Shown in pieces: positions 2,481 to 26,852 of a DNA stretch of 64,000 bases. The notes under the pieces were generated by a model that saw only the letters and a program-made list of their open reading frames with translations, was not told the DNA's origin and made no database searches. This DNA comes from Verrucomicrobiota bacterium (lineage in GTDB: Bacteria; Verrucomicrobiota; Verrucomicrobiia; Limisphaerales; AAA164-E04): assembly GCA_047947115.1 (NCBI GenBank), contig CP170459.1, forward strand, positions 4,512,001 to 4,576,000. Direction: 5' to 3'. The number at the start of each line of letters is the position of its first letter. Positions within the stretch are counted from its first letter, which is position 1. The translations under genes were made by a program, and so were the position numbers.

Positions 2481-2557
2481 CCCTCCCCACTTTCAAACTG
2501 ATTTAAGATCGCCACTATACATTGCTTGTTTCACGTCTTGAGATTAGGATCTCTGGC

Positions 2558-4437: not shown

Positions 4438-4446
4438 ACAAAACCG
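4432..4446. repeat. attL core CGGTTTACAAAACCG
   Basis: 14/15 identical to 26838-26852. Followed by GTGCTCTACC, the reverse complement of the tRNA D-arm segment GGTAGAGCAC. Confidence 0.9.
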
Positions 4447-4585
4447 GTGCTCTACCCGATGCGAGATTTTACATAAGTCATTCAAAAAGATGCAAACAAC
4501 ACAAATACAGCATTTAAAGCTCTGGATACATGTCGCAAGGTTTGCGAACATGAACGAACGCAAACGCAATTATTGACACTTTTAA

Positions 4586-4604
4586 CGTCAATACAATGTC
4601 AATG
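4586..4604. repeat. Putative integrase arm-type site (left), CGTCAATACAATGTCAATG
   Basis: 17/19 identical to 26741-26759; tandem GTCAAT motifs. Confidence 0.6.
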
Positions 4605-4687
4605 GAATAAGGCCCTTTCAGCCGGCAACCATGGCTGGTTATAGGGTTGTTTGGGCTATTTCGCTATAGGGTGGGCCAAAAACCGTA

Positions 4688-5131
4688 TCAAGTCACATCA
4701 CACCCAGAGTTTTCGTGAGAGTTCAGAATCGCGGTCACAGAGTTGACCTGAATCAACTTGTTCTGCTGTCCATGTGCCCGAGCCAAGCCTCCAATGACCC
4801 GCTCTGCTCGCTTGGAGAGCATTTCCAGTGCGCGTTCCCGCTTCAGAATGCTATCAATGCGACGCGGTATCGGCATACGACGGATCCAGTGTAGCGTCTC
4901 CATGACATCCGTGGACATGATCCGCTCGTATTCGGTAGGTAGCTGGTTGTCGTCCAGGTCATCGCCACACTGTCGATCCAGTCCCTCAGGGCCATCCCAC
5001 ATGTAGCGGCGCTTCCACTCGCGGACGGTGCCGGGCTTGATGTCCAAAAGAGCGCCTATCTCGTGCGATGATTTTCCTGCTTCAACGAGCTCCTTGGCTT
5101 GTCGTCTTATGTCCAGGGGTAGAGAAGACAT
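4688..5131 (-). CDS. HTH protein, terminase small subunit-like
   Basis: N-terminal HTH AKELVEAGKSSHEIGALLDIKPGTVREWKRRYMW resembles TerS/gpP-type HTHs. Helical C-terminus. Last gene of the element. Confidence 0.55.
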   Translation of the reverse strand: MSSLPLDIRRQAKELVEAGKSSHEIGALLDIKPGTVREWKRRYMWDGPEGLDRQCGDDLDDNQLPTEYERIMSTDVMETLHWIRRMPIPRRIDSILKRERALEMLSKRAERVIGGLARAHGQQNKLIQVNSVTAILNSHENSGCDVT

Positions 5132-5272
5132 GCTGAAAGCATATCGAATATTGGATCGAAACTCAACACTGTATCGTTATAGTTTTGAACAATGGTCTAA
5201 GCTCCACTAGCACTGGGAGCAGAAACGGCTCCCCCACACCTTGCGTTCCAGCGTCCCAGAGCTATGCCAGTC

Positions 5273-7680
5273 CTGACCATCCCCACGCGGGTGGGGAGAA
5301 CTCTGTATGCGGGGTGAACTGGCAGGCCCATGTCGGACCATCCCCACGCGGGTGGGGAGAACTATTTGCGCAATTTCGCGCTCCCCCACTTTGCCGGACC
5401 ATCCCCACGCGGGTGGGGAGAACTTTCGAGTGACAAAAGCGCGAAAGCCTAAAGCCGGACCATCCCCACGCGGGTGGGGAGAACTACCAACCAAACCCAG
5501 CGTTTGATTGGCAGCCCGGACCATCCCCACGCGGGTGGGGAGAACAAAAAATCGTTTTCCAGCTTCGCCAATAGCGCCGGACCATCCCCACGCGGGTGGG
5601 GAGAACGAATCATGCCATCGGAAATATCCGCTTTTTTCCGGACCATCCCCACGCGGGTGGGGAGAACGCGCTTTGGACGTTGTCGAATTGGTATCTCCCC
5701 GGACCATCCCCACGCGGGTGGGGAGAACCGCTTAGGAAAGCCTCTTGTGCCTTGGGATCTCGGACCATCCCCACGCGGGTGGGGAGAACGCATTGGCTGG
5801 CGCAGTCTGGCGCTTGTGGCTCGGACCATCCCCACGCGGGTGGGGAGAACTCAAGACCAAAATCCAAAACAAGCTTGACCTCCGGACCATCCCCACGCGG
5901 GTGGGGAGAACGCGCTTTGGACGTTGTCGAATTGGTATCTCCCCGGACCATCCCCACGCGGGTGGGGAGAACACAAATAACATCCGTAATCATAGCGCAA
6001 TGGCCGGACCATCCCCACGCGGGTGGGGAGAACAAAGGCGCGGCTCACCACTGCGCTCCTCAATGCGGACCATCCCCACGCGGGTGGGGAGAACTCAAGG
6101 GCATCCTTGTCTGCTTCACCCATGTTCGGACCATCCCCACGCGGGTGGGGAGAACTCAAGGGCATCCTTGTCTGCTTCACCCATGTTCGGACCATCCCCA
6201 CGCGGGTGGGGAGAACTTTTTCCGGTGGTATCAACGCGCATACGGCGGCGGACCATCCCCACGCGGGTGGGGAGAACCAATCAGTTTGCTGCCAGCGATA
6301 GCTTTTGTGCGGACCATCCCCACGCGGGTGGGGAGAACCACGGCACCTGCACTGTATTTCAATGGAACGTCGGACCATCCCCACGCGGGTGGGGAGAACT
6401 GTATGGCAGCGTAAGAGGCTGCATTCCTGAGCGGACCATCCCCACGCGGGTGGGGAGAACAAGTCCGCAGTGCGAGTTGGTGACGACATCCTCGGACCAT
6501 CCCCACGCGGGTGGGGAGAACATTGGTCCGGTTGGTGACCTCCGGGATGATAACGGACCATCCCCACGCGGGTGGGGAGAACGCGTTCGCTCGTTTAGTT
6601 TCAACCAGTTGGCTCGGACCATCCCCACGCGGGTGGGGAGAACCTTTTAGAGATTCCGGCAGCGGTGACAAAACCTGGACCATCCCCACGCGGGTGGGGA
6701 GAACAACAAGCGCAACAAGCAACGCCATAAGATTTTCGGACCATCCCCACGCGGGTGGGGAGAACTTGTGGCAATCCTGATAAGATCCTCCGATTGTCGG
6801 ACCATCCCCACGCGGGTGGGGAGAACTGTTTGTCCGGAGCGTTGCAAGGTCACATCATCGGACCATCCCCACGCGGGTGGGGAGAACCTCGTTTGTCTCT
6901 GTCTCTCGATCGGTACATGCGGACCATCCCCACGCGGGTGGGGAGAACCAGCGGGGAACACGTCACCCAAAGCTGGGTCACGGACCATCCCCACGCGGGT
7001 GGGGAGAACGCGATGCAGGGAGTAACCAAGTGCGCGTTGAACGGACCATCCCCACGCGGGTGGGGAGAACCTCGATTTTTGACCGTAGACGTGCAGGCAT
7101 ACCGGACCATCCCCACGCGGGTGGGGAGAACGGAGCATGTGACCAGACCAAATTGCTGAATGACGGACCATCCCCACGCGGGTGGGGAGAACTGCACGCT
7201 GAAGCTGGGCGCCGCGAATAATAACGGACCATCCCCACGCGGGTGGGGAGAACTTCAGCCATTGCGCGAATTCGTCACGCTACGCCGGACCATCCCCACG
7301 CGGGTGGGGAGAACACAGGCGCCAGCCGTTTGCTTTCGTTTCGCCGCGGACCATCCCCACGCGGGTGGGGAGAACAACACTGCAAACCCGCATTGAAGAA
7401 GCAAGCGCGGACCATCCCCACGCGGGTGGGGAGAACTGTTCTGTCTTGCTGATTATGCGCCAGTTGTGCGGACCATCCCCACGCGGGTGGGGAGAACACA
7501 ACCGCATCATAAATCTGCGCAGTGGGTGGCGGACCATCCCCACGCGGGTGGGGAGAACCTCGTCGGCCCATTCGGCGCTTGGTTCGTAGTCGGACCATCC
7601 CCACGCGGGTGGGGAGAACACCCAGCTATCGCCAGGAAGAAAGCCAACGTGCGGACCATCCCCACGCGGGTGGGGAGAAC
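5273..7680 (-). CRISPR. Type I-E CRISPR array: 40 repeats of 29 bp (GTTCTCCCCACCCGCGTGGGGATGGTCCG on minus strand), 39 spacers of 32 bp
   Basis: Strict 61-bp period from 5273 to 7652; palindromic I-E-type repeat. The degenerate terminal repeat at 5273 and cas2 adjacent at the other end give the orientation. Confidence 0.99.
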
Positions 7681-7729
7681 TCTGGATTATCAACAGGTTA
7701 GAGGCGAAGAAACGAGCTTTTTCTAGTTT
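7681..7729 (-). promoter_or_regulatory. Short CRISPR leader with IHF consensus site TATCAACAGGTTA (7688-7700)
   Basis: Exact match to WATCAANNNNTTR, 7 bp from the first repeat. Confidence 0.75.
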
Positions 7730-8029
7730 TCAGAAGGGGCAATTTTCCCCGTCAACCCAGTCTTCAGCGACCAGTTGAAGGCCGCTCATCAGAGTATCGC
7801 GTCGATCTGGATTACCCCAGCGCTCGATTCGAAAACCCTGAGTATTGGGTTCGGAGGTGATGATAAGAAGGCTCATGCCGGAGGCGTTGCGTTTGACATA
7901 TTCGAGGACCTTATCTCGAGTGCGACGATTCACCGTGCCAACAAACACATTTGGTCTGGGTTCAATAAACCAGCGTTTGAGCATCCCCCGAATGGCGGGT
8001 AGAGTGTCGTTGGCAATGAGAACGGTCAT
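7730..8029 (-). CDS. cas2: Type I-E Cas2
   Basis: [33 protein letters not shown]; follows cas1. Confidence 0.95.
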
Positions 8030-8038
8030 AAACAGAGA

Positions 8039-8926
8039 TCAAGAAATGGCGGACGGCGGACGAGTGTCGGCCTGTTGAGGAGCAGCCTCTTCCGTCTCAA
8101 ACAAACGTGCAAGATCCCTGGGGAGTTGTTGCAGGATGCGTTCCCTTTCGACATGTTGTTTGAGCAGTTTACGGACCAGCTCCCCATCGTCAGACGGGTC
8201 TTGTCGTGAGGCTAAAAAAGCGGCTGGAATACTCGTGCGATGTTTATATAGATCGGCAACGTCGTATATAAAAGGCAAGGTGCCAGCATCGTGAATGAAC
8301 CCAAGACTTGGCAGATAGCCAAGCGATGTCACTACTGCGGCGCATAGGGCGTAGAGGCTTGCATTTGCAGCAGAAAGAGCCCTATTGATGCCATCAGCAA
8401 GATGCCAGTTTCGGCGATCATAATTTCTACCTTTCCATGTGACACCATGTTGTCTACCAAATTCCGAGTAAAGAGCGCGAACACGGAGACCTTCCATGCC
8501 GCGTAATTCCTTGACGGTTTTTCCGGTTACATCAACATCGGGAAAACGCATTTGAAACATCGCCCGGGCAATCCGCGTGCGACGTCTTTTATCTGCCCAC
8601 GTCTCGGCGTGCAGCCGAGGCATGTCATTAGTGTGATTTGGAGCCAAACCAAAGGCGTAGAAACGCATCGACTCTCCCCCTGTCCAACACAATGGTGTGT
8701 TACTTTCCGCGCAAGCCTTAACGGCGGCATGAGTTACTGTCGTACCAGGTCCAAGTAACAATGCAGAAACAGTGGCAACAGGGATCCTACAGAGAGTACG
8801 GTCCGCACCGATCCATTTCACGCTAGAATCATCGACCTCCAAGCGTCCGTGCTCGAGATAAAGCGGCGTCCATCGATCCTTGGCTGGAGCGAGCGTTTCC
8901 AAAGGCGGACGTTCAAATAGAGGCAT
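8039..8926 (-). CDS. cas1: Type I-E Cas1
   Basis: LLGPGTTVTHAA, LRGMEGLRVR, LGFIH..FIYDVADLYK. Confidence 0.97.
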   Translation of the reverse strand: MPLFERPPLETLAPAKDRWTPLYLEHGRLEVDDSSVKWIGADRTLCRIPVATVSALLLGPGTTVTHAAVKACAESNTPLCWTGGESMRFYAFGLAPNHTNDMPRLHAETWADKRRRTRIARAMFQMRFPDVDVTGKTVKELRGMEGLRVRALYSEFGRQHGVTWKGRNYDRRNWHLADGINRALSAANASLYALCAAVVTSLGYLPSLGFIHDAGTLPFIYDVADLYKHRTSIPAAFLASRQDPSDDGELVRKLLKQHVERERILQQLPRDLARLFETEEAAPQQADTRPPSAIS

Positions 8927-8940
8927 CAGTCGGAAACGAT

Positions 8941-9651
8941 TTAAGGGTTTTTATTGATTGATTTGGATACGCGTCTGATCCAACGCGGTGTATGCCGTTC
9001 TCCAATGGGGCGACCGAAACCGATGGGATAATCCTCTATCATGTCTGCGCCATGATCGCCGGGTTCAGTTTCAACGACGTGATCAAAATCTCCCAACACA
9101 TGTTTGGTGGACAAACCAGCACGTTCCAACAAATCCTCCCAAACCTCTGAGCGCGGCCCCGGTCCGGCAGCAAGCACAGGACTGGCGGGCACACAAGATT
9201 TGCGCCCCAACCAAATGCCCCATTTGGGATCACTCAGGGCGTTTGCGATTTCAACCAACACAGCTACCGGGCCATCAAGCAACACACCGAAACGGGCGTC
9301 GAGCAAGTAGTGTCGATAAGTCAAGACGGTGGCATCAACCGCAACTTTGCCGCTGGCGCGGCGAATACCTGTAACCGTGTGGTAGTCCTCCAACCGTCGC
9401 ATGGGGAGAGATCGGTTTTGGCAGCTTGTTCGCATTAACGTCACCGTTGTTAATTGTAGTGAAGCAAAGCATTTCATGTGGTTCGCTTCCTCAGTGCCAT
9501 GTTTGTCGATCCCCATGGCTGCGGCGATAAGGCCAAGCACACCACTGCGAGTTGGGTGCAAAGCAGTTGTCCGACGGCCGAAACGCGAAGCATGTCCCCA
9601 CGATTGCATGGGACCGTCCAGTAACAACGCTAGACAGACATCAGATGACAT
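8941..9651 (-). CDS. cas5e: Type I-E Cas5 (CasD)
   Basis: GPMQSWG..PTRSGVLGLIAAAMG, DYHTV, RHYLLDA, LGRKSC. Start trimmed to MSSDV. Confidence 0.95.
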   Translation of the reverse strand: MSSDVCLALLLDGPMQSWGHASRFGRRTTALHPTRSGVLGLIAAAMGIDKHGTEEANHMKCFASLQLTTVTLMRTSCQNRSLPMRRLEDYHTVTGIRRASGKVAVDATVLTYRHYLLDARFGVLLDGPVAVLVEIANALSDPKWGIWLGRKSCVPASPVLAAGPGPRSEVWEDLLERAGLSTKHVLGDFDHVVETEPGDHGADMIEDYPIGFGRPIGERHTPRWIRRVSKSINKNP

Positions 9652-10720
9652 TCTGTGTAAGGGCCTCACAAAAGGCGTTAAGGTTGATATCTGGTAGAAT
9701 GACCTCAGCATCACAGGTAATGTCCCAGGTCTCTTTAAGTTTGGTGTGATGAGCTTTCAGTGCCTCCACCGAAGCTTCCAGCAGGCCGCTCTTAGCACGG
9801 ACCGGCGATTCGAAGGCATTGACTAATTGTAAGGGTTGACCAGTAGACTTGTAAATTCCTAGCACAAAACCGGGTCGCGTGTTGGCATTCATGGAATTTT
9901 TCCGCGCGCCGGGGACAGCTTCCAGAGTGGCACGAATGAAACCATCCACTACCTTGCGTCGCTCTTCAACTGACAACTTTGCCAAATGTGCTTCGTCAGC
10001 AAGGAGGCCGAGGTTCACTGCAGCATATCGATAATAAACAGCGGAGGAGAACTCCAGTGTACCGATCATCCCCGCACCAGCATCATCTTCCTTGGGCTTT
10101 GCATCGTCCAAGGCGGAATAGAAGTCGAGATCGCTGTCCGCCAAGTGGGTGGAAAGAGCGTGGCTGTACATGGCCGCTCCTTCCAGTGTGAGCGAGGGTA
10201 AACTGGCAACCATGCGTCCAAAAAGAGCGATGTCGGCGCCATCGACAAGCCCCGCTTTTTTGCATAGTTTGTCGAGATTCTTCTCATAGTCCTTGGCTTT
10301 TGGGTTGGACCTTACTAACTCGGCAACCTGTTGCGCGACGGAATCGATCTCTGAAGGCGCGAGAAAGATCAACGTACCTACCTGAGGAATTCGTCCGTCC
10401 TTGACGGACTTGGTGTCGATTTTGGCCAATTTGTCAGCAATATTGACAGCATGTTCGGCAGCTACTTTATCATCAGTAATACCGTGCTTCTGTAAGGCAT
10501 CCATCAGCGGCTGTACAATGAGCTTGGTGCGACTACCGTTGAATTTTGCATCCGGAAGATTGGCCTGAGCGTATTCGCGAATCGCTCGCTTTAACGACTG
10601 ACTGGAAATCCGAGCGCGGTTGACACCACCGAACACGGCGGCTTTAGGAGATCCCACGTCATCTCGATTAAGGCAAGAAACGGGGAAAGACTGGAGGATG
10701 TGCAATTCAATGAGTTTCAT
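9641..10720 (-). CDS. cas7e: Type I-E Cas7 (CasC/Cse4)
   Basis: LNRDDVGSPK..RARISSQSLKRAIR, DIALFGRM. Confidence 0.97.
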   Translation of the reverse strand: MKLIELHILQSFPVSCLNRDDVGSPKAAVFGGVNRARISSQSLKRAIREYAQANLPDAKFNGSRTKLIVQPLMDALQKHGITDDKVAAEHAVNIADKLAKIDTKSVKDGRIPQVGTLIFLAPSEIDSVAQQVAELVRSNPKAKDYEKNLDKLCKKAGLVDGADIALFGRMVASLPSLTLEGAAMYSHALSTHLADSDLDFYSALDDAKPKEDDAGAGMIGTLEFSSAVYYRYAAVNLGLLADEAHLAKLSVEERRKVVDGFIRATLEAVPGARKNSMNANTRPGFVLGIYKSTGQPLQLVNAFESPVRAKSGLLEASVEALKAHHTKLKETWDITCDAEVILPDINLNAFCEALTQNVI

Positions 10721-10753
10721 ATTCTGTTTTGTATCGATTAAATATTATCTTGA

Positions 10754-11422
10754 TCAAAGGTTGAGAGGAGCCAGAACAAGCAGTCCAAATCCAAACGCCT
10801 TGGCCGAACCGATACCGGTTGCAACTGCTTCGCGGAACTGTAACGAATCCGTAACAGTCAATTCTCCTTGAAATTCGACGGCATTGTGCGTGCCATGCGT
10901 GTGGGCGTCCTTGTGAAAGAACTCGCGACCACGCGGGATGGTGCGAAGTGAATCCCTGTTTAGGGCGAATCCGGCTACTTCAGCTTTGCGGTGAAGCCAC
11001 GCGATAAGGTCTCCACGCTTGGTAATGGCAAGACGACGACCATTTTTTGTACGTTCACCCGCTTTGTTCGATCGAACCTTGCGCGTGGGATTGGCCAATA
11101 AGCTGAAACGGTAGGAAGAATGCTCGAAAAAGGCGTCCGGAATGGGTTTCGTCCCAAAGCTATCAGTCGGGCACCAGTCAGGCTTACGCGGAATGTTCCG
11201 CGAAAGGATCAAAACCTGAAAGCACAAATCCTTCCGGTCCACCCGCGTGAGGAAATCACGGGGCTGTCTGTCTGTTCCACCAAATGCAAGCCAGATCTTC
11301 TGGTGCCAATCGTAGGTATCCCGGATGCGAAGCAAACGGATAGCATCCTCATAAGAGACTAGGATCTGAGTTAGATGCAGCGCCTCGACAGCAACAGTCG
11401 AAGGAGTTGTAGCGGTAATCAT
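10754..11422 (-). CDS. cas6e: Type I-E Cas6e (CasE/Cse3)
   Basis: YDWHQKIW, FSLLANPT, C-terminal G-loop GIGSAKAFGFGLL. Confidence 0.96.
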   Translation of the reverse strand: MITATTPSTVAVEALHLTQILVSYEDAIRLLRIRDTYDWHQKIWLAFGGTDRQPRDFLTRVDRKDLCFQVLILSRNIPRKPDWCPTDSFGTKPIPDAFFEHSSYRFSLLANPTRKVRSNKAGERTKNGRRLAITKRGDLIAWLHRKAEVAGFALNRDSLRTIPRGREFFHKDAHTHGTHNAVEFQGELTVTDSLQFREAVATGIGSAKAFGFGLLVLAPLNL

Positions 11423-16067: not shown

Positions 16068-16288
16068 TAGCTCGAAAGGTCGTTAGATTTTCTTTTTCCA
16101 ACAAGATTTTTTTGTTAATTAATTCGGGCTAAGTTTTAAACAAACATAGAGCTCGTTTGTCGTCAACACAAACAAACAGACCGATCAGATATTCACGATC
16201 ATTTCTAGGCTTCATACAAGTCTATCTCGGAAATCGAGCTTGCACCAAAAATCTTTAAACAGATTCAAAAAAAAAATTCTTCGTCCGG

Positions 16289-20555: not shown

Positions 20556-20579
20556 ACGATGGTAATTTAGTGGATGGGG

Positions 20580-20598
20580 TAGGACAAAAACTGTCCTA
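20580..20598. promoter_or_regulatory. Inverted repeat TAGGACA-N5-TGTCCTA, operator-like
   Basis: Perfect 7-bp arms, 25 bp upstream of the HEAT gene start. Confidence 0.5.
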
Positions 20599-20606
20599 GG
20601 CTTGTA

Positions 20607-20774
20607 TTAAATGGATTTATTGTCTTCATCTAAAGTCTCTGGGGGTTTGTTGTTGTTGTCGTCTTCGCTGGTTTTTTCATGATAGGCTTTCCAAACCTCA
20701 TCAGGAATTAGGGTCAGTGCGCTTCCTGCTTCCAGGTAAAGCTCACGCAAAGAGTCGTCTTTAGAATCAGGCAT
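20607..20774 (-). CDS. Small acidic hypothetical protein (55 aa)
   Basis: ATG overlaps the upstream stop (ATGCCTGA). Confidence 0.45.
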   Translation of the reverse strand: MPDSKDDSLRELYLEAGSALTLIPDEVWKAYHEKTSEDDNNNKPPETLDEDNKSI

Positions 20775-21009
20775 TTTGGACCCCTTCTTTTGAATTCGAA
20801 ACAACATTTTTCCAACCGTCACGAAGCAATGAATTCCGTTTCTGGTGGGCCTTGGTGCGGGATTTTGTGTGGAGATTCACTCGGAACCGTTCCTGTCGGA
20901 ATCCATCCTTAATCGCCCAGAAGTGGCACCACCAGGTGCCGTGATTTTGGAATAGGTGATGGTCGGGATTATTTTTCCGAACCCGCACCGAAAGACTCCA
21001 GCTACTCAT
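20767..21009 (-). CDS. Small basic protein resembling a three-stranded DNA-binding (integrase arm-like) domain
   Basis: NPDHHLFQNHGTWW..ERFRVNLHTK..KAHQKRN pattern; coupled to both neighbours. Confidence 0.65.
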   Translation of the reverse strand: MSSWSLSVRVRKNNPDHHLFQNHGTWWCHFWAIKDGFRQERFRVNLHTKSRTKAHQKRNSLLRDGWKNVVSNSKEGVQNA

Positions 21010-21190
21010 TGTTCGCCTCCTTCGGTTGATGATTGCATGTCTGGCCTGTCTCGACTACCCGAGGAATCCTGCGGATGGGGATCACGATGAGTTGCTCACC
21101 GTCTTTCAAGAAGGAGCTTTTGCCCTCTATGTTGATTTGATCAGGCTGACGCGATGACGCGTTACCTGTCGTTTGTTTTTTGTCTGTCAT
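21002..21190 (-). CDS. Small hypothetical protein (62 aa), first ORF after the riboswitch
   Basis: Starts ~45 nt after the terminator; stop overlaps the next ATG. Confidence 0.45.
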   Translation of the reverse strand: MTDKKQTTGNASSRQPDQINIEGKSSFLKDGEQLIVIPIRRIPRVVETGQTCNHQPKEANNE

Positions 21191-21233
21191 GGCTCAATGT
21201 TTTTTCTGGTTTCATTGGCCACCAGGATCTGGA

Positions 21234-21272
21234 AATACAAAAGACCCGCACTCCAATCAGGAACGCGGGTCT
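21234..21272 (-). terminator. Intrinsic terminator (riboswitch expression platform)
   Basis: Minus strand AGACCCGCGTTCC-TGATT-GGAGTGCGGGTCT followed by TTTGTATT. Confidence 0.85.
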
Positions 21273-21282
21273 AAAATCCGGA

Positions 21283-21400
21283 GGAGACTTACTTTCCACT
21301 CAATTGAGTGGCTCATCCGATACTTTTCAGTATCGAAGGCACCTTGGCTCTCCCAGCCAGGTTGCCAGGTCTTGCAACTTGCAGGACCGTTCCTGATGAC
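21283..21400 (-). ncRNA. SAM riboswitch aptamer, SAM-I/IV variant
   Basis: P1 TCATC/GATGA; P2 GGTC..GACC; P3 GGCAACC..GGTGCC core; P4 CGATACT-GAAA-AGTATCG; P5 CCACTC-AATT-GAGTGG; L3 GGAGA complementary to 3' TCTCC (PK-2). Confidence 0.88.
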
Positions 21401-21406
21401 GACTTC

Positions 21407-21435
21407 AACCTACATCATGCAGATGTGTTCGACAA
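21407..21435 (-). promoter_or_regulatory. Putative sigma70 promoter for the riboswitch, TTGTCG-N17-TAGGTT
   Basis: 17-bp spacing; predicted +1 falls at the first aptamer base (~21400). Confidence 0.55.
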
Positions 21436-21456
21436 TACTGTTTTGTGTCATAAAAC

Positions 21457-21774
21457 TTAGTCGGACGAGTCTGGTTCGCCAATCAAACACCAGATCCCTT
21501 CTTCCCGTATGGTTTTAAGAACTTCGTCCAGAGCCTCCTGATCGGTATCAAAGGGATCATCCCAGACGGTCGAATTATCGTATTCGTCTTCAACCTCAAG
21601 TATCCATTTGCCTTCTCCGTCTCCGTAAATTTTAACGGAAACAGAGTCGTCGCCAATGCTGATGACTTGGCACAATGGAGAATACACGAGCTCAAAATCG
21701 TCGTCGCCTCCCTCGATTTCAAAAGTTGGTCTGATCATTTTCAATGAATCTAACCAACGGGGCGTTCCAGTCAA
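21457..21774 (-). CDS. Small acidic hypothetical protein
   Basis: 105-aa D/E-rich ORF, WILEVEDE..STVWDDPFDTDQEAL. Start uncertain. Confidence 0.65.
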   Translation of the reverse strand: MTGTPRWLDSLKMIRPTFEIEGGDDDFELVYSPLCQVISIGDDSVSVKIYGDGEGKWILEVEDEYDNSTVWDDPFDTDQEALDEVLKTIREEGIWCLIGEPDSSD

Positions 21775-21844
21775 CTCCGCTCAGAGTTGATCGGATGGCT
21801 GTCGCTGGGTGTATTCCGGCGTCTACTTTTTACCTGTGCGTTTT

Positions 21845-21970
21845 ACTGCAACTGGTTTCCTGCACTGCAGAACAGTAATAAACCTGCCAGTTACTGCAAC
21901 TGCAAACCCTAAAGGGTTTTTGCAGTATGCAGTTAACCTGGCTTTAGCTTTTTCACTGCAACGCTGCAGT
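21845..21970. repeat. Putative replication origin: clustered ACTGCA/TGCAGT iterons around a central palindrome
   Basis: About nine (A)CTGCA/TGCAGT copies in both orientations at the 3' end of the helicase gene, centred on AAACCCT-AA-AGGGTTT. Confidence 0.65.
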
Positions 21971-23005
21971 AGTCCAGATACGAGTCTTAGGTTCCTTGGT
22001 CACTGAACCATCATGCTCAAGCTGCTTGAGCAAATTGTGAAAAGTACGTTCGCTCATTCCTGTCTCTTCTCTGGCAAGCTTGAGCCAGTCCTTTGTTTTG
22101 CAACCTGAAACCGGCAACAACTCAAGCAATTGCTCTGATGAATACTTCTTGCTTGCTCCTGCCTTGGTCTTCAGATCAGAAGGATCGAAGTCAACTCTTG
22201 TACAAACAGGATGACTCCAGCTTATCACGAAGCTTTCAACACTCGGATGATTACGCAGGACCAAGTCCACAGTGAAACAATCCTCTTCCTTGTGCTTGGT
22301 CATTGTCACCAGTGCATCCGGATCTCGAGCAAATACACCACTGCCTGAGAATCGATCCATTTGTTCCTTGCCGGCTTGGTTGCCCTTGGAAAAATGGTGA
22401 GCACTGATGACGGCGGCACCGGTCTGGTTGGCTATGTCATCAATTATGTTCAAAAACTCCGCTATTTCCCCGGCGGCGTTTTCATTCCTACCGGCCATGA
22501 TCTTGTAAAGCGGATCAAGGATAATGGCCCCATACTTCATCGGAGCTGCCCGGCTGCATATGGCTTCTCTGATGGTCGTAATATCGGGATTGTGACCGCG
22601 CAAGCCCCAGTAGTCGATGTTCTCCATTCCACCATCGGGATATTTTGCGACAACACCTTTGATCGATTGATCAATATTGTCCATGCGCTCCATGAAAAAC
22701 GAAGTGAGCAGTTCCATATTGACATACAAAACGCGGCACTTGTTAGTTTTAAAATCCAACCAGCTTCCGCCTGAAGCCAGTGCATGTGCAAGTTGCATCA
22801 GGATCCAAGTCTTGTTGGATTTGGATCCACCGCCAATGATCATTTTGCAACCGGCGTGTAACACCCCATCAATCAATTCCGCGGGCTTCTCGCGATCCTG
22901 CGGATTCAATTGACTGAGGGGTGTTATTTCCGGCAGATCATTGCCTTGCGCCAAGGCAAGATCCAGTGGATCCAGAATTAATTGTTCGGCATCCATCGTT
23001 CGCAT
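21953..23005 (-). CDS. RepA/AAA_25-type replicative helicase with probable C-terminal wHTH
   Basis: GGGSKSNKT, VLYVNME, IILDPLYK, HHFSKG, SGSGVFARDPD. Confidence 0.88.
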   Translation of the reverse strand: MRTMDAEQLILDPLDLALAQGNDLPEITPLSQLNPQDREKPAELIDGVLHAGCKMIIGGGSKSNKTWILMQLAHALASGGSWLDFKTNKCRVLYVNMELLTSFFMERMDNIDQSIKGVVAKYPDGGMENIDYWGLRGHNPDITTIREAICSRAAPMKYGAIILDPLYKIMAGRNENAAGEIAEFLNIIDDIANQTGAAVISAHHFSKGNQAGKEQMDRFSGSGVFARDPDALVTMTKHKEEDCFTVDLVLRNHPSVESFVISWSHPVCTRVDFDPSDLKTKAGASKKYSSEQLLELLPVSGCKTKDWLKLAREETGMSERTFHNLLKQLEHDGSVTKEPKTRIWTTAALQ

Positions 23006-23997
23006 AGGTCTCCATGTTGGCTCCAGTAATCATAAAGGTCGTTCACCCCTTTAAATGGCGACAATTCGTATACCTCCACTGAAGAGCACCCTGCATCAAG
23101 TAACTGTTTTTTCCAGCGGGATGCCGCTCGCCTTCCAGCTTCGTCATCATGTCCGAAGATCCTAATCACTTTGCCCTTGAAAAAAGGAAGCACGGCCTCA
23201 TGTATGAGTGAAGAGCTGCCAAGCATGCCCACGGGTGCACAATTAGGTTCTGGCTGTTCGGTCTGGATGATGTGATGTGCAATCAGGAAATCCGGAATTC
23301 CCTCAACCAAGGCTATGTTCCTGAACTTTGATGCCTCCACAATACCAACGGGCCAGCTTTTCCGACTACCGGGCTCGGCCTTGCTTTTAATTCCTGCTGG
23401 AAATGGCTTGTTGTCCAGCCGCCGTGCCTCAATGACGTTCCCTGTTTTGTCGCATACGTAGTAGCATTCGTTCTTGCACTTAAGAACGCCGCGCTCCGAA
23501 GCCCAGAGCAGTCCCTGCAGACCGTAAGGCCTCTCATGAGCCATTTGCTGCAGAATCTGCCTAGAGGGCTTCAGAAGGCCGCGACCTTGCTCGTATGCCT
23601 CTGCATCCAGAAACATTTTGGGATCCAAGTTAACCGGTTGATCCTTGGTCCTGCGCAAAGGGCGGATCCGCTTTGGTGGGGCAACCTTAGCCAGGGTTCT
23701 GTATATGTCCAACACCTTGGCAAAATCTTTGTGCCGATCGAAACCGTGAACAGTGGCAATGAATTGAAGTTCATCTCCAACAAGTCCTGTTCCGTGGTCT
23801 TTGAACAACCAATTGGTCTCAACTTGATAAATCCCAAAACTTGGATTCTTATCGTCCCTGAAGGGTGAAGAACATGATTTTTTGGCATAATCGCCGAAAT
23901 CCATTGCTTCCATCAGATCTGGGAGTGGAAGCGCTTGTTTGAGTTGTTTAATTTGACTCTGCACCTTGGCAGGAGTTTGAACTTTTAATTGTTTCAT
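22978..23997 (-). CDS. DnaG-like primase (degenerate CHC2 zinc finger + Toprim)
   Basis: SCSSPFRDDKNPSF..FKDHGTG..GD; Toprim LVEGIPD and GHDDEAG. Start trimmed to the ATGA overlap. Confidence 0.82.
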   Translation of the reverse strand: MKQLKVQTPAKVQSQIKQLKQALPLPDLMEAMDFGDYAKKSCSSPFRDDKNPSFGIYQVETNWLFKDHGTGLVGDELQFIATVHGFDRHKDFAKVLDIYRTLAKVAPPKRIRPLRRTKDQPVNLDPKMFLDAEAYEQGRGLLKPSRQILQQMAHERPYGLQGLLWASERGVLKCKNECYYVCDKTGNVIEARRLDNKPFPAGIKSKAEPGSRKSWPVGIVEASKFRNIALVEGIPDFLIAHHIIQTEQPEPNCAPVGMLGSSSLIHEAVLPFFKGKVIRIFGHDDEAGRRAASRWKKQLLDAGCSSVEVYELSPFKGVNDLYDYWSQHGDLCERWMPNN

Positions 23998-24404
23998 AAA
24001 TTTGAGTTGGGAGAGTACACACCCTCCCCAATTGATAAGTTTTCTGTTAATGGTTTGATTTCCACTACCTTGGCCATGGTTTGACCTTCGGCCTCGAAAT
24101 GCGCTACTTTCAGTTGGCATTTCTTTCCCTTGAGCTTCATTAGATCGAACTCGTTGTGAAGTTCCTCTGGACCTACCCATGCAGATAGATCCTTTAGCAG
24201 ATTGCTTTTGGGATGCAGGGTTGCGTTATAGGATTTCCTGATCTGAAGCGTCTCTGATGAGTCTTCAGGGACGATCAACCATGTGAAACGGACGAGGTGC
24301 TTGTTGCCATATTCAGTAGGCACAAAGCCTCTGTCCACGATCTCGGAGCAAATTGCCCGATGCCATCCCTCTTGGGGCAGTTGTCTAAGTAATTTTAACT
24401 TCAT
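23994..24404 (-). CDS. Phage-type ssDNA-binding / replication protein (OB-fold-like)
   Basis: PQEGWHRAIC..VDRG..KSNLLKDLSAW..LKGKKCQLKV; directly upstream of the primase. Confidence 0.6.
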   Translation of the reverse strand: MKLKLLRQLPQEGWHRAICSEIVDRGFVPTEYGNKHLVRFTWLIVPEDSSETLQIRKSYNATLHPKSNLLKDLSAWVGPEELHNEFDLMKLKGKKCQLKVAHFEAEGQTMAKVVEIKPLTENLSIGEGVYSPNSNL

Positions 24405-24506
24405 GATTTTATGGGTGTTCGTGTGCCTAAATGCACAGGAAATTGGTTTGTGACGGAAAATCTCAAGGCACAGATATCCATCCAGACACCCCGAAAAGGG
24501 GGTGCC

Positions 24507-24824
24507 CTACTTGCTAATCTGTTGTGTTGGATTTTTTGTTGGGGGGTGGGGGGTGTTCCTCCTGACGGCTTTGATTTCGAGCAAATTCAAGGCTTGCTTG
24601 ACACTATCTGGGTCGAAGCGAACGCACCTTTTGCCGAGGCGGGTCACCGGAATCTTTTTGGCATCTACCAACTTTTCGAGTTGGCGAATTGAGATTTGAA
24701 GCTGGGCGGCTAGCTGCCGCTTGTTGAGATAGGAATTACCATACCAGGTTGAATTGACAAAGTCGCTGCAATTTGCGCTATTGTTTCCCAATTGTGTGTC
24801 TCGTGCAGGAGTGTTCGTATCCAT
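24507..24824 (-). CDS. Excisionase/AlpA-like HTH protein
   Basis: YLNKRQLAAQLQISIRQLEKLVDAKKIPVTRLGKRCVRF. Confidence 0.8.
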   Translation of the reverse strand: MDTNTPARDTQLGNNSANCSDFVNSTWYGNSYLNKRQLAAQLQISIRQLEKLVDAKKIPVTRLGKRCVRFDPDSVKQALNLLEIKAVRRNTPHPPTKNPTQQISK

Positions 24825-24855
24825 GTGGACAACCTGTCCGACGTTTGAGGAAATG

Positions 24856-25518
24856 TCATCTGGACAATTTTGGATCCAAGTTTGTCCAACTCGCATCTAG
24901 TATAAATTGAAAACCTTTACGGCGAAACCCTCTTATTATTGGCCCTCTAGTTACGTGGTTGTATCGAATTAGCCCCAGTCTCTGAACTGCTTTCCGGTAG
25001 TTTTGCTCATCACACGTATGTCCGCTTATTTTTGAAAGGTGATAGGCTCCATCATCGTCTGTCATCATCCATAAAAACCCATTCACCCAAAACTGTAGAA
25101 TTCCAAACTCGATTTTGAACGTTTTTTTACTAATGCGTCTGGTGTATCTTCGGTGAGCAGTATGGATTTTTTGAAAAAACTCAGAATCCCCATTGAGTGC
25201 CTTCTCTAGGATATGATAAGCGAAGAACTTCAATGCAGCGTCAAGCTGGCCGAGTGAAATTAAACCAAAAAACGCTTCATCTTTTTTCGTGTCACTCTTT
25301 GTTATATCCTTTTGGCTCTTTGAGAGCCCAAAAGCTTTCCGTTGATATGCATGGACCTTTTCTTTCCAATTTTTGTGAACTTTGTCAAAGCCTTCGATTT
25401 TCGTTGTTTTCCTAAAAAAATCTTCTAGCCCGTTATCCAACTGCCATTTTTTACCTAGCTGTTGTCCAACACCTGCCAGTAACTCATCCCACTCGTCTAG
25501 TTGGTATGATTTTTCCAT
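24856..25518 (-). CDS. Hypothetical protein, possible element regulator
   Basis: ATG overlaps the integrase stop (TAATG); lies between integrase and xis-like gene. Confidence 0.6.
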   Translation of the reverse strand: MEKSYQLDEWDELLAGVGQQLGKKWQLDNGLEDFFRKTTKIEGFDKVHKNWKEKVHAYQRKAFGLSKSQKDITKSDTKKDEAFFGLISLGQLDAALKFFAYHILEKALNGDSEFFQKIHTAHRRYTRRISKKTFKIEFGILQFWVNGFLWMMTDDDGAYHLSKISGHTCDEQNYRKAVQRLGLIRYNHVTRGPIIRGFRRKGFQFILDASWTNLDPKLSR

Positions 25519-26711
25519 TAACTTCCTTTTAAGTGACTCAGTTCTCTTCGTAGGTCTAGGACCGAGTTTTGTGGATCTGGTAAACATTCCTTTAATTGAG
25601 GAAAGGCAACTTCTGATCGGATACTCCAGTAGGCTTCGGATTTATCCTTAGTTACCAGTTCCCGGTAATGCTGGTAAAGCATCGCCGTATCAGAGTGCCC
25701 CAGTTCCATGGCGGTTCGTTTTGGGTCATTGAACATCGCATAGTGGTATGAAGCAAAGGAATGGCGGAAGTCGTTCTTCCTTGCCCGTCCGATCCCAAGT
25801 TCTTGCCACGCTGCATTTAATAGTCGTCTCAAGTTTGGAGGCTTCACTTTCCCACTCCGATTGCCTTGGGCAAATAGCCATGATTGGAGGTTCGGTTGGA
25901 TCTCAACCAAGCGTCTTCTTGAGGTTTTGGCATTGGCTGCTTTGATTTCAATGTAGCCGGATTCCAGGTCAACCTCATCCCAGTTTAGCTTATCCAGTTC
26001 GGCGATCCTTAGGCCAGCGAATGCTGCGATAGCCAGGTAGGAATGGATCTTGGGATCCGCAACTGACAACAACTTTCTTAGTTGCTCTGGCGTCAGTATC
26101 TTGATGGGATCTGGTTTGGCTTTGACTTTCTCGATTCTGGAGACTGGGTTCTCAGCAACAAAGCCGTGCTTCAAGGCATGGGTGAAAAGTCCGTTCAGGA
26201 CTGTCCTGAAGTTGTTCATGCTCTGTGCGCTCAGTCCAAGGCTATGAATCCAATGGTCGATCTCCGAAGCTTTGATGGTTGCAGCAATTTTCTTTTGGAA
26301 AGCCTCATTAAATCGGCCTAATCTGTAGCTCAAATCTTTGAGGTATCGTTCACTGTTTTGTTTTCGAGATTTGGTGCCCAGATAATCTGCAATCAGATCG
26401 GAAACAGTGCAGCTGTTCTTGGAGCTTTCCAGGTGGGATAGGTAAAAGTTGACGGCTTCAGAAAGTGTGGCTTTGAAGGGCTTGAGGCGATCATCACATT
26501 GGACTGCTTCAAGACGTAACTGGTCGCTGATTGCGAAGGCTTTGTTGCCGAGGTTTTCAAGTTCGATTAAGATTTGATCCCTGCGAGTATTCGCCTCTTT
26601 TTTGGTTTTGAAGAATTCGCGGGTGCGCTTGCCATCCTTTGGGTAGCCGACGACCCATTTTGAAGTAGGAGAATGCTTGTAAGGTTTGACAGAAACTTTC
26701 GGCGAGCCCAT
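25518..26711 (-). CDS. int: Tyrosine recombinase/integrase
   Basis: AGLRIAEL, AKT, NDFRHSFASY, LGHSD..HY catalytic motifs; adjacent to attR. Confidence 0.95.
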   Translation of the reverse strand: MGSPKVSVKPYKHSPTSKWVVGYPKDGKRTREFFKTKKEANTRRDQILIELENLGNKAFAISDQLRLEAVQCDDRLKPFKATLSEAVNFYLSHLESSKNSCTVSDLIADYLGTKSRKQNSERYLKDLSYRLGRFNEAFQKKIAATIKASEIDHWIHSLGLSAQSMNNFRTVLNGLFTHALKHGFVAENPVSRIEKVKAKPDPIKILTPEQLRKLLSVADPKIHSYLAIAAFAGLRIAELDKLNWDEVDLESGYIEIKAANAKTSRRRLVEIQPNLQSWLFAQGNRSGKVKPPNLRRLLNAAWQELGIGRARKNDFRHSFASYHYAMFNDPKRTAMELGHSDTAMLYQHYRELVTKDKSEAYWSIRSEVAFPQLKECLPDPQNSVLDLRRELSHLKGS

Positions 26712-26740
26712 GCGTTTAAGTTCGCATATGAGCGTTTTTG

Positions 26741-26759
26741 CGTCAATAAAAAGTCAATG
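26741..26759. repeat. Putative integrase arm-type site (right), CGTCAATAAAAAGTCAATG
   Basis: Direct repeat of 4586-4604. Confidence 0.6.
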
Positions 26760-26803
26760 TTTCGGCACTAAGCTTGAGCATTGTGTGTAAGTCGTTGAAG
26801 GAG

Positions 26804-26852
26804 TGGAGCCAGCTGTCGGGGTCGAACCGACGACCGACGGTTTTCAAAACCG
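26804..26852 (-). other. tRNA-Thr-like 3' fragment and attR core (CGGTTTTCAAAACCG, 26838-26852); not a complete tRNA
   Basis: Minus strand ACCGT-CGGTC-GTCGG-TTCGACC-CCGAC-AGCTGGC-T-CCA = variable loop, T-arm, 3' acceptor strand and CCA. Confidence 0.88.

Follow-up and report, generated by a model that had tools for sequence, protein, structure and literature searches.

What kind of mobile DNA carries a complete type I-E CRISPR-Cas system inside a surface-protein gene of a marine Verrucomicrobiota bacterium is the question raised by this locus. The window is the whole 64,000-nt stretch analysed (contig CP170459.1, positions 4,512,001 to 4,576,000). The element measures 22,406 bp at window 4432-26852, is flanked by a 15-nt imperfect repeat (its extent being 4432-26837 plus the duplicated 15-nt core), and carries every one of its genes on the minus strand. 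A reading made from the sequence alone had described a helper-dependent phage satellite. Its account of an integrative element with a replication module and a type I-E system stands; the satellite and the helper dependence are not supported. What the evidence supports is an integrative element that is discrete, was inserted recently and brings both a replication module of its own and a full type I-E system, and the element is best described, with a probability of about 70%, as a cargo-carrying, integrative, probably self-replicating, tycheposon-like genomic island.

Boundaries and insertion site

The features that define the two ends of the element are as follows.

2522..4431, plus strand: 5' part of the interrupted CotH/LTD gene, codons 1-636 (Pfam LTD and CotH)
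4432..4446, no strand: left att core CGGTTTACAAAACCG, the tRNA-Thr(UGU) anticodon stem-loop in the minus-strand reading
4447..4456, minus strand: element-borne extension of the tRNA-Thr similarity, tRNA positions 17-26
4586..4604, plus strand: candidate arm-type recombinase site, CGTCAATA-N4-GTCAATG
26741..26759, plus strand: second copy of the arm motif, CGTCAATA-N5-GTCAATG
26804..26852, minus strand: element-borne 3' part of tRNA-Thr(UGU), positions 27-75 with CCA, including the right core CGGTTTTCAAAACCG
26853..28440, plus strand: 3' part of the interrupted CotH/LTD gene, placed by an in-frame ortholog and by metagenome contigs that join it to 4402-4431

The att repeats of the sequence-only reading are real, and the ends it had placed at 4438 and 26843 fall within the 15-nt cores. 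The copies at 4432-4446 and 26838-26852 are identical at 14 of 15 positions and correspond to the stem-loop that holds the tRNA-Thr(UGU) anticodon. Similarity to tRNA positions 17-41 covers window 4432-4456 (96% over 25 nt), and the right end matches positions 27-75 of the genomic tRNA-Thr(tgt) gene (98% over 49 nt). Partial tRNA copies at the element ends are thus found together with a tyrosine recombinase directed to a tRNA site. The left chromosomal flank is not tRNA-like, and a search of the 6.08-Mb genome for the core, allowing one mismatch, gave only six sites. Judged from these alignments, the insertion site is a mimic (14/15) of the tRNA-Thr anticodon stem-loop within a CotH/LTD surface-protein gene. 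At the single core mismatch, the left copy has the tRNA/attP variant and the right copy the empty-site variant, a difference that fits one reciprocal crossover. The arm motif, which was picked by eye from these same ends, occurs only at the two listed sites in the 64-kb window (0.00 expected in shuffles).

In the proposed mechanism, the tyrosine integrase would recombine at the tRNA-Thr(UGU) anticodon loop, and the joined ends (attP) would form a tRNA-Thr look-alike spanning positions 17-75. The CotH/LTD mimic would be a secondary site used in the sequenced strain, with the gene split in frame.

The empty allele was observed directly. The CotH/LTD gene is uninterrupted in contigs from all four metagenome runs, which come from four studies, and in each run the contigs that match from 26838 rightwards continue to the left with the 30 letters of window 4402-4431. 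The empty-site contig from one of them (run X1) is 21,369 bp long and shows 22 differences in 3,163 nt. The ortholog in a same-genus genome is also uninterrupted, its 5' part running in frame into the right-hand part, with amino acid identities of 76% and 64% to the two CotH/LTD halves. Since the gene is intact in these four runs and in the same-genus genome, the element is a strain-specific insertion. The cas locus is likewise absent from the empty-site strains; its presence there without the backbone had been named in the sequence-only reading as an observation that would refute it. None of the metagenome contigs listed bridges the occupied junction in other samples, and the occupied state is therefore known from a single genome.

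It must also be considered whether the element is stranded, having entered once at a poor secondary site and lost excision and transfer, so that its CRISPR-Cas system is effectively chromosomal. The one-base core difference and the non-tRNA-like left flank may hinder excision, a sibling island (E3, below) is visibly decayed, and neither a circular form nor the attP junction was seen among metagenome contigs. Against this, the open reading frames for the integrase, the xis-like protein, the initiator, the primase and the helicase are each intact, and 31 of 32 positions of the newest spacer (sp39) still agree with a phage contig. Both CotH frames flanking the element remain open, from which it follows that the insertion is recent, and the integrase of the element is found at about 99-100% identity in two further metagenome runs. 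A stranded island is accordingly rated as improbable.

Replication module and CRISPR-Cas cargo

From the integrase end, the element is composed of the following features.

25518..26711, minus strand: tyrosine integrase, 397 aa (Phage_integrase 2.2e-13; phrog_1 5.9e-42)
24856..25587, minus strand: 243-aa ORF adjoining the integrase gene, without family match
24507..24896, minus strand: xis/AlpA-like HTH protein, 129 aa (HTH_17, TIGR01764)
23994..24404, minus strand: replication initiator, NGO0469 family (78.5 bits, cut-off 75)
22978..24180, minus strand: primase (weak CHC2/Toprim below cut-off; phrog_47 4e-11)
21953..23005, minus strand: AAA_25 helicase (1e-24)
21953..24404, minus strand: replication module of helicase, primase and initiator
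~21842..21978, no strand: iteron-like cluster, candidate replication origin, overlapping the 3' end of the helicase gene and extending a little beyond it
20607..21774, minus strand: four small ORFs (71, 80, 62 and 105 aa)
16289..20555, minus strand: cargo trio of a HEAT-repeat protein (717 aa), a MoxR-type AAA ATPase (331 aa) and a DUF2201 protein (374 aa)
7730..16067, minus strand: type I-E operon cas3-cse1-cse2-cas6e-cas7-cas5-cas1-cas2
7681..7729, minus strand: putative short leader in the cas2-array interval, read from the sequence
5274..7680, minus strand: CRISPR array, 40 repeats of 29 nt and 39 spacers of 32 nt (37 distinct)

Gene content, order and co-orientation agree with the sequence-only reading from the integrase gene through the terminal HTH gene. 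Two of its labels change, that of the TerS-like protein (below) and that of the ORF called SSB-like, which is the NGO0469-family replication initiator. The xis-like protein scores below threshold with both models (HTH_17, 21.5 bits against a cut-off of 27; TIGR01764, 23.4 bits against 28.8), and the 243-aa ORF has no family match in Pfam, PHROG or NCBIfam (best Atlas value at most 0.79). The iterons that had been noted are present as a cluster of CTGCA/TGCAG pentamers, with 9-11 per 136 nt, whereas 470 other windows average 0.3 and none exceeds 6. The cluster lies within a block that is shared with a sibling island, E2; an alignment of 3337 nt between window 21218-24551 and genome positions 1,684,419-1,687,747 shows 97.06% identity. 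The four small ORFs have no family match in Pfam, PHROG or NCBIfam, and two of them, of 105 and 80 aa, are also present in E2 (100% and 89% amino acid identity). The element presents the backbone expected of a satellite: an integrase with att sites, a primase, helicase, initiator and iteron cluster, and a sub-threshold xis/AlpA-like HTH protein. From this gene content, the excised form would replicate from the iteron cluster by means of its own initiator, primase and helicase.

The DUF2201 member of the cargo trio is metallopeptidase-like/VWA according to Pfam. The trio has PHROG matches (phrog_1297, 7.6e-84; phrog_1314, 1.7e-66), PADLOC returned only two weak IetA matches (E 2.5e-4 and 6.7e-4), and the trio has no paralogue in the host genome.

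The type I-E system is complete, as had been claimed. Each of the eight cas genes exceeds the curated cut-off of at least one type I-E NCBIfam model (for example, Cas1e with 312 bits against 215.6, Cas7 with 278.7 against 178 and Cse1 with 135.2 against 70), and the same gene order occurs in six of six other Verrucomicrobiota I-E loci. From cas3 through the end of the array, the system occupies 10.8 of the 22.4 kb, which is indeed about half of the element. The array is of type I-E form, with a period fixed at 61 nt, and the degenerate repeat at 5274 places the leader end at 7680. No related array was found in same-genus and same-family genomes.

The expectation that the spacers are aimed at phages was upheld by IMG/VR matches with the correct PAM. 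Tailed-phage contigs contain matches to four distinct spacers at 31-32 of 32 positions: a phage portal gene is matched by sp14/sp15 (32/32), six contigs by sp28 (32/32), and further contigs by sp20 (31-32/32) and sp39 (31/32). Among the matches listed (24/32 or better), the PAM is AAG in 15 of 16 and AAA in the other, AAG being the canonical type I-E PAM. In one target phage, G671, a 50-nt stretch adjoining the phage's own integrase is identical to the 3' end of host tRNA-Arg(acg). The attP of this phage is thus identical to the host tRNA-Arg. By its gene content the system would provide ordinary antiphage adaptive immunity, with spacers acquired beside AAG PAMs from tailed phages of the host lineage, and transfer of the island would carry machinery and immune memory together.

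Sibling islands and the terminal HTH gene

The search for relatives with different cargo, which had been suggested as a check, was productive. At least three siblings of the element lie at tRNA genes of the host genome, between repeats (31-66 nt) of tRNA-Glu, tRNA-Ser(cga) and tRNA-Ser(gct). They have the replication module and/or the terminal HTH gene in common with it and differ in cargo. The island family is therefore multi-copy in this genome. E2 lies at tRNA-Glu between direct repeats of 33 nt and is 19.7 kb long; its cargo comprises IS elements, a 1,968-aa adhesin-like protein and an OMP. It has 3.3 kb in common with the CRISPR-bearing element (E1) at 97%, and the integrases and cargo of the two are different. 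E4 has a family A DNA polymerase instead of the shared replication module, and its integrase is 49% identical to that of E1. E3, a composite island, is visibly decayed: only 136 aa remain of its integrase, and IS elements are numerous. Siblings that measure 45.8 and 49 kb bear surface-protein and metabolic cargo. Among 54 metagenome relatives recognised by the HTH gene, none has cas genes or an array within the DNA examined, and the CRISPR cargo may for this reason be a one-off capture.

Two features at the opposite end from the integrase are common to the family.

5132..5256, minus strand: non-coding block upstream of the HTH gene, conserved across five copies
4688..5131, minus strand: terminal HTH protein, 147 aa (Terminase_5/HTH_23, residues 7-53)

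The HTH gene has five genome copies with 83-92% amino acid identity and is kept in all sibling islands, where its position is always approximately 250 bp from an island end or within the composite E3. In 17 of the 54 metagenome loci, a tRNA gene lies no more than about 350 bp beyond it. Column identity across the gene and its block is 0.89-0.96 and falls to about 0.6 on either side of that unit, which retains 82-90% nucleotide identity among islands that differ in integrase and tRNA target. If the islands share a function in transfer or regulation, the HTH gene and its upstream block would be the likeliest to provide it.

This unit is central to the possibility of a true phage satellite, either PICI-like or VEIME-like, which would be induced by a helper, use the HTH protein as its small terminase and have its CRISPR system transduced. 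The order of integrase, xis-like, primase/helicase and origin without structural genes is what such an element would show, the HTH protein matches the Terminase_5 HTH domain (3.6e-8), and conservation of the gene and block despite differing integrases and tRNA targets is predicted by helper-specific packaging. At 22.4 kb, the element would also fit the capsid of a target phage of roughly 38 kb (32.8 kb at 86% completeness). However, the match that had led to the TerS-like label is confined to the DNA-binding domain, where HTH_23 and an IS630 HTH fit equally, and an identity as TerS is not supported. A PDB profile search produced no TerS relative. An AlphaFold model of the protein was weak (pLDDT 65.7), and with it Foldseek retrieved no PDB entry at E ≤ 0.001; the highest-ranking rows, all weak, were sigma-4, LuxR-type and paired-domain folds. 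No relative was found among 50,697 phage records, nor in IMG/VR with the HTH protein alone, its 30-row alignment or the helicase. The HTH protein has no similarity to the TerS of the target phage G670, and no island protein has a relative in G671.

The absence of capsid, tail and T4SS genes was confirmed, as no such family matched in any ORF scanned. The same holds for what a satellite should contain: packaging, capsid-remodelling and interference genes were not found in the 14 backbone and cargo ORFs (Pfam, PHROG), and neither were ppi/rpp, portal, head or terL genes in the element. A genome search with HK97 capsid, two terL and one relaxase family found nothing, and siblings of 45.8 and 49 kb are larger than typical satellites.

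The comparison with described satellites is similar. The element resembles PICIs and SaPIs in its arrangement of integrase, AlpA/xis-like and primase/replicase genes, with an origin beside the replicase, att sites and no virion genes; unlike PICIs, as far as the available descriptions go, it is without a packaging or capsid-hijack gene and has no known helper. In SatelliteFinder, an integrase, xis and primase alone define an ambiguous 'Type C' PICI, and an element with only three core genes could be a defective PICI, a mobile element of another kind or a chance grouping of genes (Moura de Sousa et al. 2023, PMC10085698, in the part available; its main text contains 'CRISPR' twice). Marine VEIMEs carry an integrase, excisionase, AlpA, primase/helicase and sometimes terS (Eppley et al. 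2022, PMC9618062). In the part of that paper available, capsids are reported to carry these elements, about 20% of which are also integrated in marine bacterioplankton genomes, Verrucomicrobia included, and the defence content named is restriction-modification, Abi-like and terS, not CRISPR-Cas. VEIMEs are defined by presence in virus particles, and the present element, known from a genome sequence, is compared with them by description. Taken together, a true satellite is considered unlikely. Equally doubtful is a broader proposal, in which this is the first recognised Verrucomicrobiota family of the tycheposon or satellite type, the HTH gene and block act as a packaging or export signal and CRISPR immunity travels via capsids or vesicles. 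If true, acquired immunity would be horizontally transmissible and carried by a self-replicating parasite of phages.

A conserved non-coding block beside a conserved DNA-binding gene at the island end, in an element without transfer genes of its own, might also suggest an integrative mobilisable element, one that a conjugative system would move in trans, with the HTH protein as an accessory of the relaxosome and the block as oriT. The sequence-only reading had itself set relaxase-mediated mobilisation against its satellite. A relaxase is absent from the element (Pfam, PHROG, NCBIfam), and PF03432, the sole relaxase family searched genome-wide, found nothing, leaving mobilisation highly implausible.

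Relation to known islands

For the preferred reading of a tycheposon-like island, the closest known systems are Vibrio cholerae GI-24 and the cargo-carrying tycheposons. As described in the available part of PMC6360697 (2019), GI-24 is a 17-kb integrase-bearing island with attL and attR that is missing in some strains. It encodes a type I-E system, cas3-cas8e-cse2-cas6-cas7-cas5-cas1-cas2 followed by the array, with spacers that target local phages, and it excises whole, CRISPR included. The present element is alike in having a complete type I-E system with the same variant gene order on an integrase island that is absent from related strains. It differs from what is described there in its replication module ('primase' is absent from the main text of PMC6360697), in its tRNA-like site inside a gene rather than between two core genes, in a host of another phylum, and in being one of a family of multi-copy, modular islands in which a terminal HTH gene is conserved.

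Because CRISPR-Cas on integrase islands has already been documented (Vibrio GI-24, VPI-6), the principle is not new. The present case adds a clean natural example from a little-studied marine phylum, with exact insertion via tRNA anticodon-loop mimicry within a coding gene. The same data show wild populations with the empty allele, an exchange of integrase, replication and cargo modules among sibling islands, and the phages at which the carried memory is aimed, one of them host-linked through its attP. The frequency with which adaptive immunity moves as cargo of small replicative islands, and the role of the conserved terminal HTH module in island transfer, are now testable.

Tycheposons are known from Prochlorococcus and other marine bacteria (Hackl et al., bioRxiv 10.1101/2020.12.28.424599). 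Compared with the available part of that text, the present family is similar in its tRNA-specific tyrosine integrases, partial tRNA end copies, excisionase, primase/helicase module and variable cargo, and in the occurrence of several strain-specific islands per genome at different tRNAs, with common modules and decayed or tandem copies; the likeness is one of architecture. Unlike the tycheposons described there, the element has CRISPR cargo (the word 'CRISPR' occurs 0 times in the available text), bears a terminal HTH gene that is not among the hallmark genes described, and is inserted in a protein-coding gene rather than at a tRNA. As in tycheposons, E1 and E2 have a replication module in common while differing in integrase and cargo.

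Ends of the island and its insertion site

From its ends and gene content, the 22.4-kb island E1 (4432-26852) is a tRNA-type integrative island, predicted to be replicative, with CRISPR-Cas as cargo. A 15-nt core is common to both ends, with the sequence CGGTTTACAAAACCG at 4432-4446 and CGGTTTTCAAAACCG at 26838-26852. On the minus strand, each end matches part of tRNA-Thr(tgt): the right end (26804-26852) corresponds to positions 27-75, with 98% identity in 49 nt, and the left end (4432-4456) to positions 17-41, with 96% identity in 25 nt. Since both ends match this tRNA, an excised circle would hold a tRNA-Thr look-alike (positions 17-75) as attP, and the crossover would fall in the anticodon loop. 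The insertion site is nevertheless a CotH/LTD gene and not tRNA-Thr; both halves of the gene are still in frame. In the host genome, a single contig of 6.08 Mb of which the window covers 4,512,001-4,576,000, the core occurs with at most one mismatch at just six sites: tRNA-Thr(tgt), the two ends of E1, tRNA-Thr(cgt), a tRNA-Thr(cgt) repeat and one other. The motif CGTCAATA-N4/5-GTCAATG, found at 4586-4604 and 26741-26759 and nowhere else in the 64-kb window, is a candidate arm-type site; because it was selected by eye from the ends of E1 themselves, its shuffle statistic is too favourable.

The region of the native tRNA-Thr(tgt) is genome c3,758,801-3,759,204 (locus L030, 2800-3210, minus strand). 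There the tRNA is followed by an insert of ~290 bp that resembles a small GIY-YIG nuclease gene (a label given by eye); beyond the insert, the 3' end of the tRNA is repeated over 41 nt, its T-loop mutated. The insert is either a mini-insertion or an island remnant at the presumed primary site of E1.

Logan contigs from four metagenome runs of four studies (marsh, seawater and two estuary) were placed on 22000-30000 of the window. In all four runs, a contig that fits rightwards from 26838 has a left loose end that matches the 30 letters of 4402-4431; in run X1 this empty-site contig is 21,369 bp long, with 22 differences in 3,163 nt. As these contigs join 4402-4431 to 26838, the CotH gene is intact in wild populations. 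Its ortholog is also unbroken in the same-genus genome G521, in which neither an HTH-family member nor a related CRISPR array was found. The empty site has a single core of the right-copy variant and the left core of E1 is the tRNA/attP variant, as a single reciprocal exchange on the 3' side of the variable base would leave them. The sequence-only reading had named a cas locus at this position without the backbone as a refutation; none was seen, and the whole 22.4 kb is either there or missing as one unit. In runs X3 and X5, short contigs (records 20, 21 and 26) carry the E1 integrase at ~99-100% identity. Among the matches listed for the four runs, no contig bridged the occupied junction, and some stretches of E1 had little or no contig cover in some runs.

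Gene content and sibling islands

Every sizeable gene of 4432-26852 is on the minus strand. Families were assigned by Pfam, PHROGs and NCBIfam.

Features of E1 (window coordinates where given)
25518-26711, minus: tyrosine integrase
after the integrase, minus: 243-aa ORF without family match
minus: xis/AlpA-like HTH protein, 129 aa, scores below cut-offs
minus: NGO0469-family replication initiator, 136 aa, 78.5 bits (cut-off 75)
after the initiator, minus: CHC2/Toprim primase
minus: AAA_25 helicase (phrog_2597, 7e-62)
between helicase and HEAT-repeat protein, minus: four small ORFs
16289-20555, minus: HEAT-repeat protein, MoxR-type AAA ATPase and DUF2201 protein (cargo trio)
minus: cas3-cse1-cse2-cas6e-cas7-cas5-cas1-cas2, all eight exceeding the cut-off of one or more type I-E NCBIfam models
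5274-7680: CRISPR array, 40 repeats and 39 spacers
4688-5131, minus: HTH protein, 147 aa

The replication initiator is the ORF that had been labelled SSB-like, a label that its score replaces. CTGCA/TGCAG pentamers are clustered at 9-11 per 136 nt (mean 0.3 and maximum 6 in the remaining window) where the helicase gene ends (3') and in the DNA immediately downstream of it, making this a plausible candidate for an iteron origin. The 14 backbone and cargo ORFs gave no match to capsid, tail, terminase-large, portal, relaxase or T4SS families, and an Atlas search with the 243-aa ORF gave none above 0.79. With the helicase as query, the sole match in the genome-contig collection was one 3.4-kb single-cell contig of an uncultured Verrucomicrobia; no relative was found in IMG/VR.

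The cargo trio is placed between the replication module and cas3. The MoxR-type ATPase and the DUF2201 protein, the latter described as metallopeptidase-like plus VWA, have strong phage-family matches (phrog_1297 at 7.6e-84 and phrog_1314 at 1.7e-66). PADLOC returned only two weak IetA matches to the AAA protein, the host genome holds no paralogues of the trio, and a full-text literature search for DUF2201 retrieved unrelated papers only. Possibly the trio is an as yet uncharacterised module for defence or counter-defence.

A BLAST search of the host genome aligned 21218-24551 with genome 1,684,419-1,687,747 at 97.06% over 3,337 nt, a block that spans the origin, helicase, primase, initiator and the start of xis. 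Of the HTH gene together with the 125 bp upstream of it, the genome holds four further copies (82-90% nucleotide identity). These matches lie in three islands at tRNA genes.

Sibling islands of E1 in the host genome
E2, ~19.7 kb, bounded by a 33-nt tRNA-Glu repeat: the replication module of E1, another integrase, two IS transposases, a 1,968-aa adhesin-like protein and an OMP; HTH gene adjoining the tRNA
E3, 49 kb, bounded by a 31-nt tRNA-Ser(cga) repeat: the HTH gene in two copies, giant proteins, numerous IS elements and a truncated integrase of 136 aa
E4, 45.8 kb, bounded by a 66-nt tRNA-Ser(gct) repeat: integrase 49% identical to that of E1, xis, family A DNA polymerase, sulfatase, kinase, photolyases, giant Ig/beta-helix proteins, IS elements and a terminal HTH gene

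The suggested search for relatives with different cargo was thus fruitful, with E2, E3 and E4 sharing modules and carrying other genes. Integrases, att sites and replication modules are swapped among the islands; the HTH gene and its upstream block are conserved. Across the five copies, conservation per column is 0.84-0.98 over the gene and the 125-bp block and ~0.6 at the stop codon and past the block, a pattern in the alignment that speaks for a shared transfer or regulatory function. After circularisation, the HTH gene would sit just upstream of attP and int.

Among 401 genomes sampled across the phylum, the HTH family occurs in the host genome only, with its five copies. It is common in marine metagenomes, where 67 of 90 candidate proteins scored E ≤ 0.001, and a tRNA gene (Glu, Ser, Leu, Thr or Tyr) follows within ~350 bp at 17 of 54 loci. 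Neither a tblastn match to the Cas, cargo or replication proteins of E1 nor a CRISPR-like array was found in the 54 loci, many of which are on short contigs. One metagenome contig (L070, 2810-4379) has, in this order, an HTH-family gene, a complete tRNA-Thr(tgt) on the opposite strand and an integrase with 24% identity to that of E1, an arrangement that represents either tandem islands or an HTH-att-int junction.

Five more integrases of the host genome, 27-34% identical to that of E1, adjoin tRNA or tmRNA genes. Their sites include genome 4,306-13,444, the vicinity of tRNA-SeC (2,340,712), two tRNA-Tyr genes (341,877 and 354,334) and the tmRNA gene (2,493,765); a partial repeat of tRNA-Thr(cgt) lies 9 kb from that gene. 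There seem to be many more tRNA-linked islands in this genome.

Comparison with phage satellites and other islands

The sequence-only reading had likened E1 to PICIs, a type of phage satellite. The backbone does resemble that of PICIs; however, the defining hijack module is missing. The terminal HTH protein had been called TerS-like, a label that rests on a 47-residue HTH match which HTH_23 fits equally well and that was dropped. An AlphaFold2 model from a 30-row alignment was weak (pLDDT = 65.7, pTM = 0.30) and Foldseek found nothing in the PDB at E ≤ 0.001, while a PDB profile search returned only HTH regulators and a designed repeat. No match to the protein was found by tblastn in 50,697 phage records; in IMG/VR, the protein gave one 17-residue match at chance level and the family alignment gave none. 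Nor does it resemble the TerS of a phage targeted by the spacers, and no E1 protein has a relative in the spacer-matched phage contig G671. Since HK97 capsid, TerL_ATPase, Terminase_6N and the PF03432 relaxase have no match in the host genome, no resident helper is evident.

That E1 is a phage satellite is therefore unlikely: the hijack module is absent, the HTH protein has no TerS relative by sequence or, with a weak model, by fold, and the sibling islands reach 46-49 kb with surface and metabolic genes. The idea is retained at this low level because the HTH gene and its upstream block are conserved despite the swaps of integrase, att site and replication module, suggesting a shared transfer or regulatory function. 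The SatelliteFinder authors say that elements with no more than int, AlpA and primase, their "Type C", may belong to other kinds of mobile element (PMC10085698).

An integrative island with CRISPR-Cas cargo, such as E1, has precedents. According to McDonald et al. 2019 (PMC6360697), GI-24 of V. cholerae is a 17-kb integrase island with att sites that excises as a unit and carries a type I-E system with the same gene order as in E1, and VPI-6 carries type I-F; thus CRISPR-Cas on an integrative island was already known. The backbone logic of E1 matches that of tycheposons, for which the preprint (bioRxiv 10.1101/2020.12.28.424599) describes tRNA-specific tyrosine integrases, partial tRNAs, an excisionase and primase/helicase, shared modules that connect PICI-like with cargo-carrying types, and copies in tandem or in decay; CRISPR is nowhere mentioned in that text. 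For VEIMEs, a published report shows marine encapsidation of such elements, some of them integrated in Verrucomicrobia genomes (PMC9618062). A full-text literature search, at the level of titles and abstract starts, returned no complete CRISPR-Cas system on a verified phage satellite, which is not proof of absence. Overall, the earlier observation holds and its interpretation survives in part.

Origin of the CRISPR-Cas systems and their targets

Relatives of Cse1 occur in 38 of the 401 sampled genomes, the host included, with a best identity of 49%. In all six loci examined, cas6e precedes cas7, and neither the E1 backbone nor the HEAT/MoxR/DUF2201 trio is near any of them. The cas operon is thus a Verrucomicrobiota-type I-E system captured by the island. 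The host genome has no Cas1e paralogue. The closest operon in the phylum sample, that of genome G160 (Cse1 49%), starts beside tRNA-Leu(taa) (L101, 11870-11955) and, given this neighbour, may itself lie on a tRNA-linked island.

Outside the array, the spacers gave no alignment of at least 20 nt in the host genome, and none with INPHARED phages. PLSDB gave only arrays with related repeats, 380 other genomes of the class gave only related arrays or 23-33-nt matches that were repeat-located or at chance level, and 119 loci gathered in the analysis gave no match. The proposed search of IMG/VR was productive, matching tailed-phage contigs at up to 32/32 with AAG flanks. In exact scans, two of five spacers matched and three gave nothing. 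Spacer sp14 (= sp15) matches 32/32 in the 12.6-kb contig G670, inside a Mu-type portal gene beside terS, terL, protease, scaffold and major head genes, and sp28 matches 32/32 in six contigs. The matched records also contain matches to sp20 (31-32/32), the leader-proximal sp39 (31/32) and sp18 (27/32 and 24/32). The flank is AAG in 15 of the 16 spacer matches listed and AAA in one. Given these phage matches with AAG flanks, the E1 system appears to work as ordinary adaptive immunity against phages, its spacers having been acquired correctly.

The AAA flank belongs to a 32/32 protospacer of sp20 in an IMG/VR contig (L128, ~1775-1809), possibly a PAM escape variant. Two spacers are duplicated: sp7 = sp11 (5668-5699 = 5912-5943), with three spacers between, and the adjacent sp14 = sp15 (6095-6126 = 6156-6187), the pair with the perfect portal-gene match.

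Contig G671 (32.8 kb, 86% complete by CheckV) encodes an integrase, Erf, an exonuclease, TerS, a portal and a major head protein, and by this predicted gene content is a temperate tailed phage. Beside its integrase, 50 nt are identical to the 3' end of the host tRNA-Arg(acg), which ties the phage to this host lineage.

A second CRISPR-Cas system of the host, type II-C, lies at genome 4,798,487-4,803,278, ~222 kb right of the window (L134, 5487-10278). It comprises cas9 (995 aa, TIGR01865 at 3e-190), cas1, cas2 and an array of 36-nt repeats and 30-nt spacers. Since a small serine recombinase, a 558-aa unknown ORF and yifB/comM truncated at 234 aa directly precede it, the locus may sit on an inserted element. 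Phage G671 shares two 30-nt matches at 100% with this locus, the first within the array and the second at the array edge.
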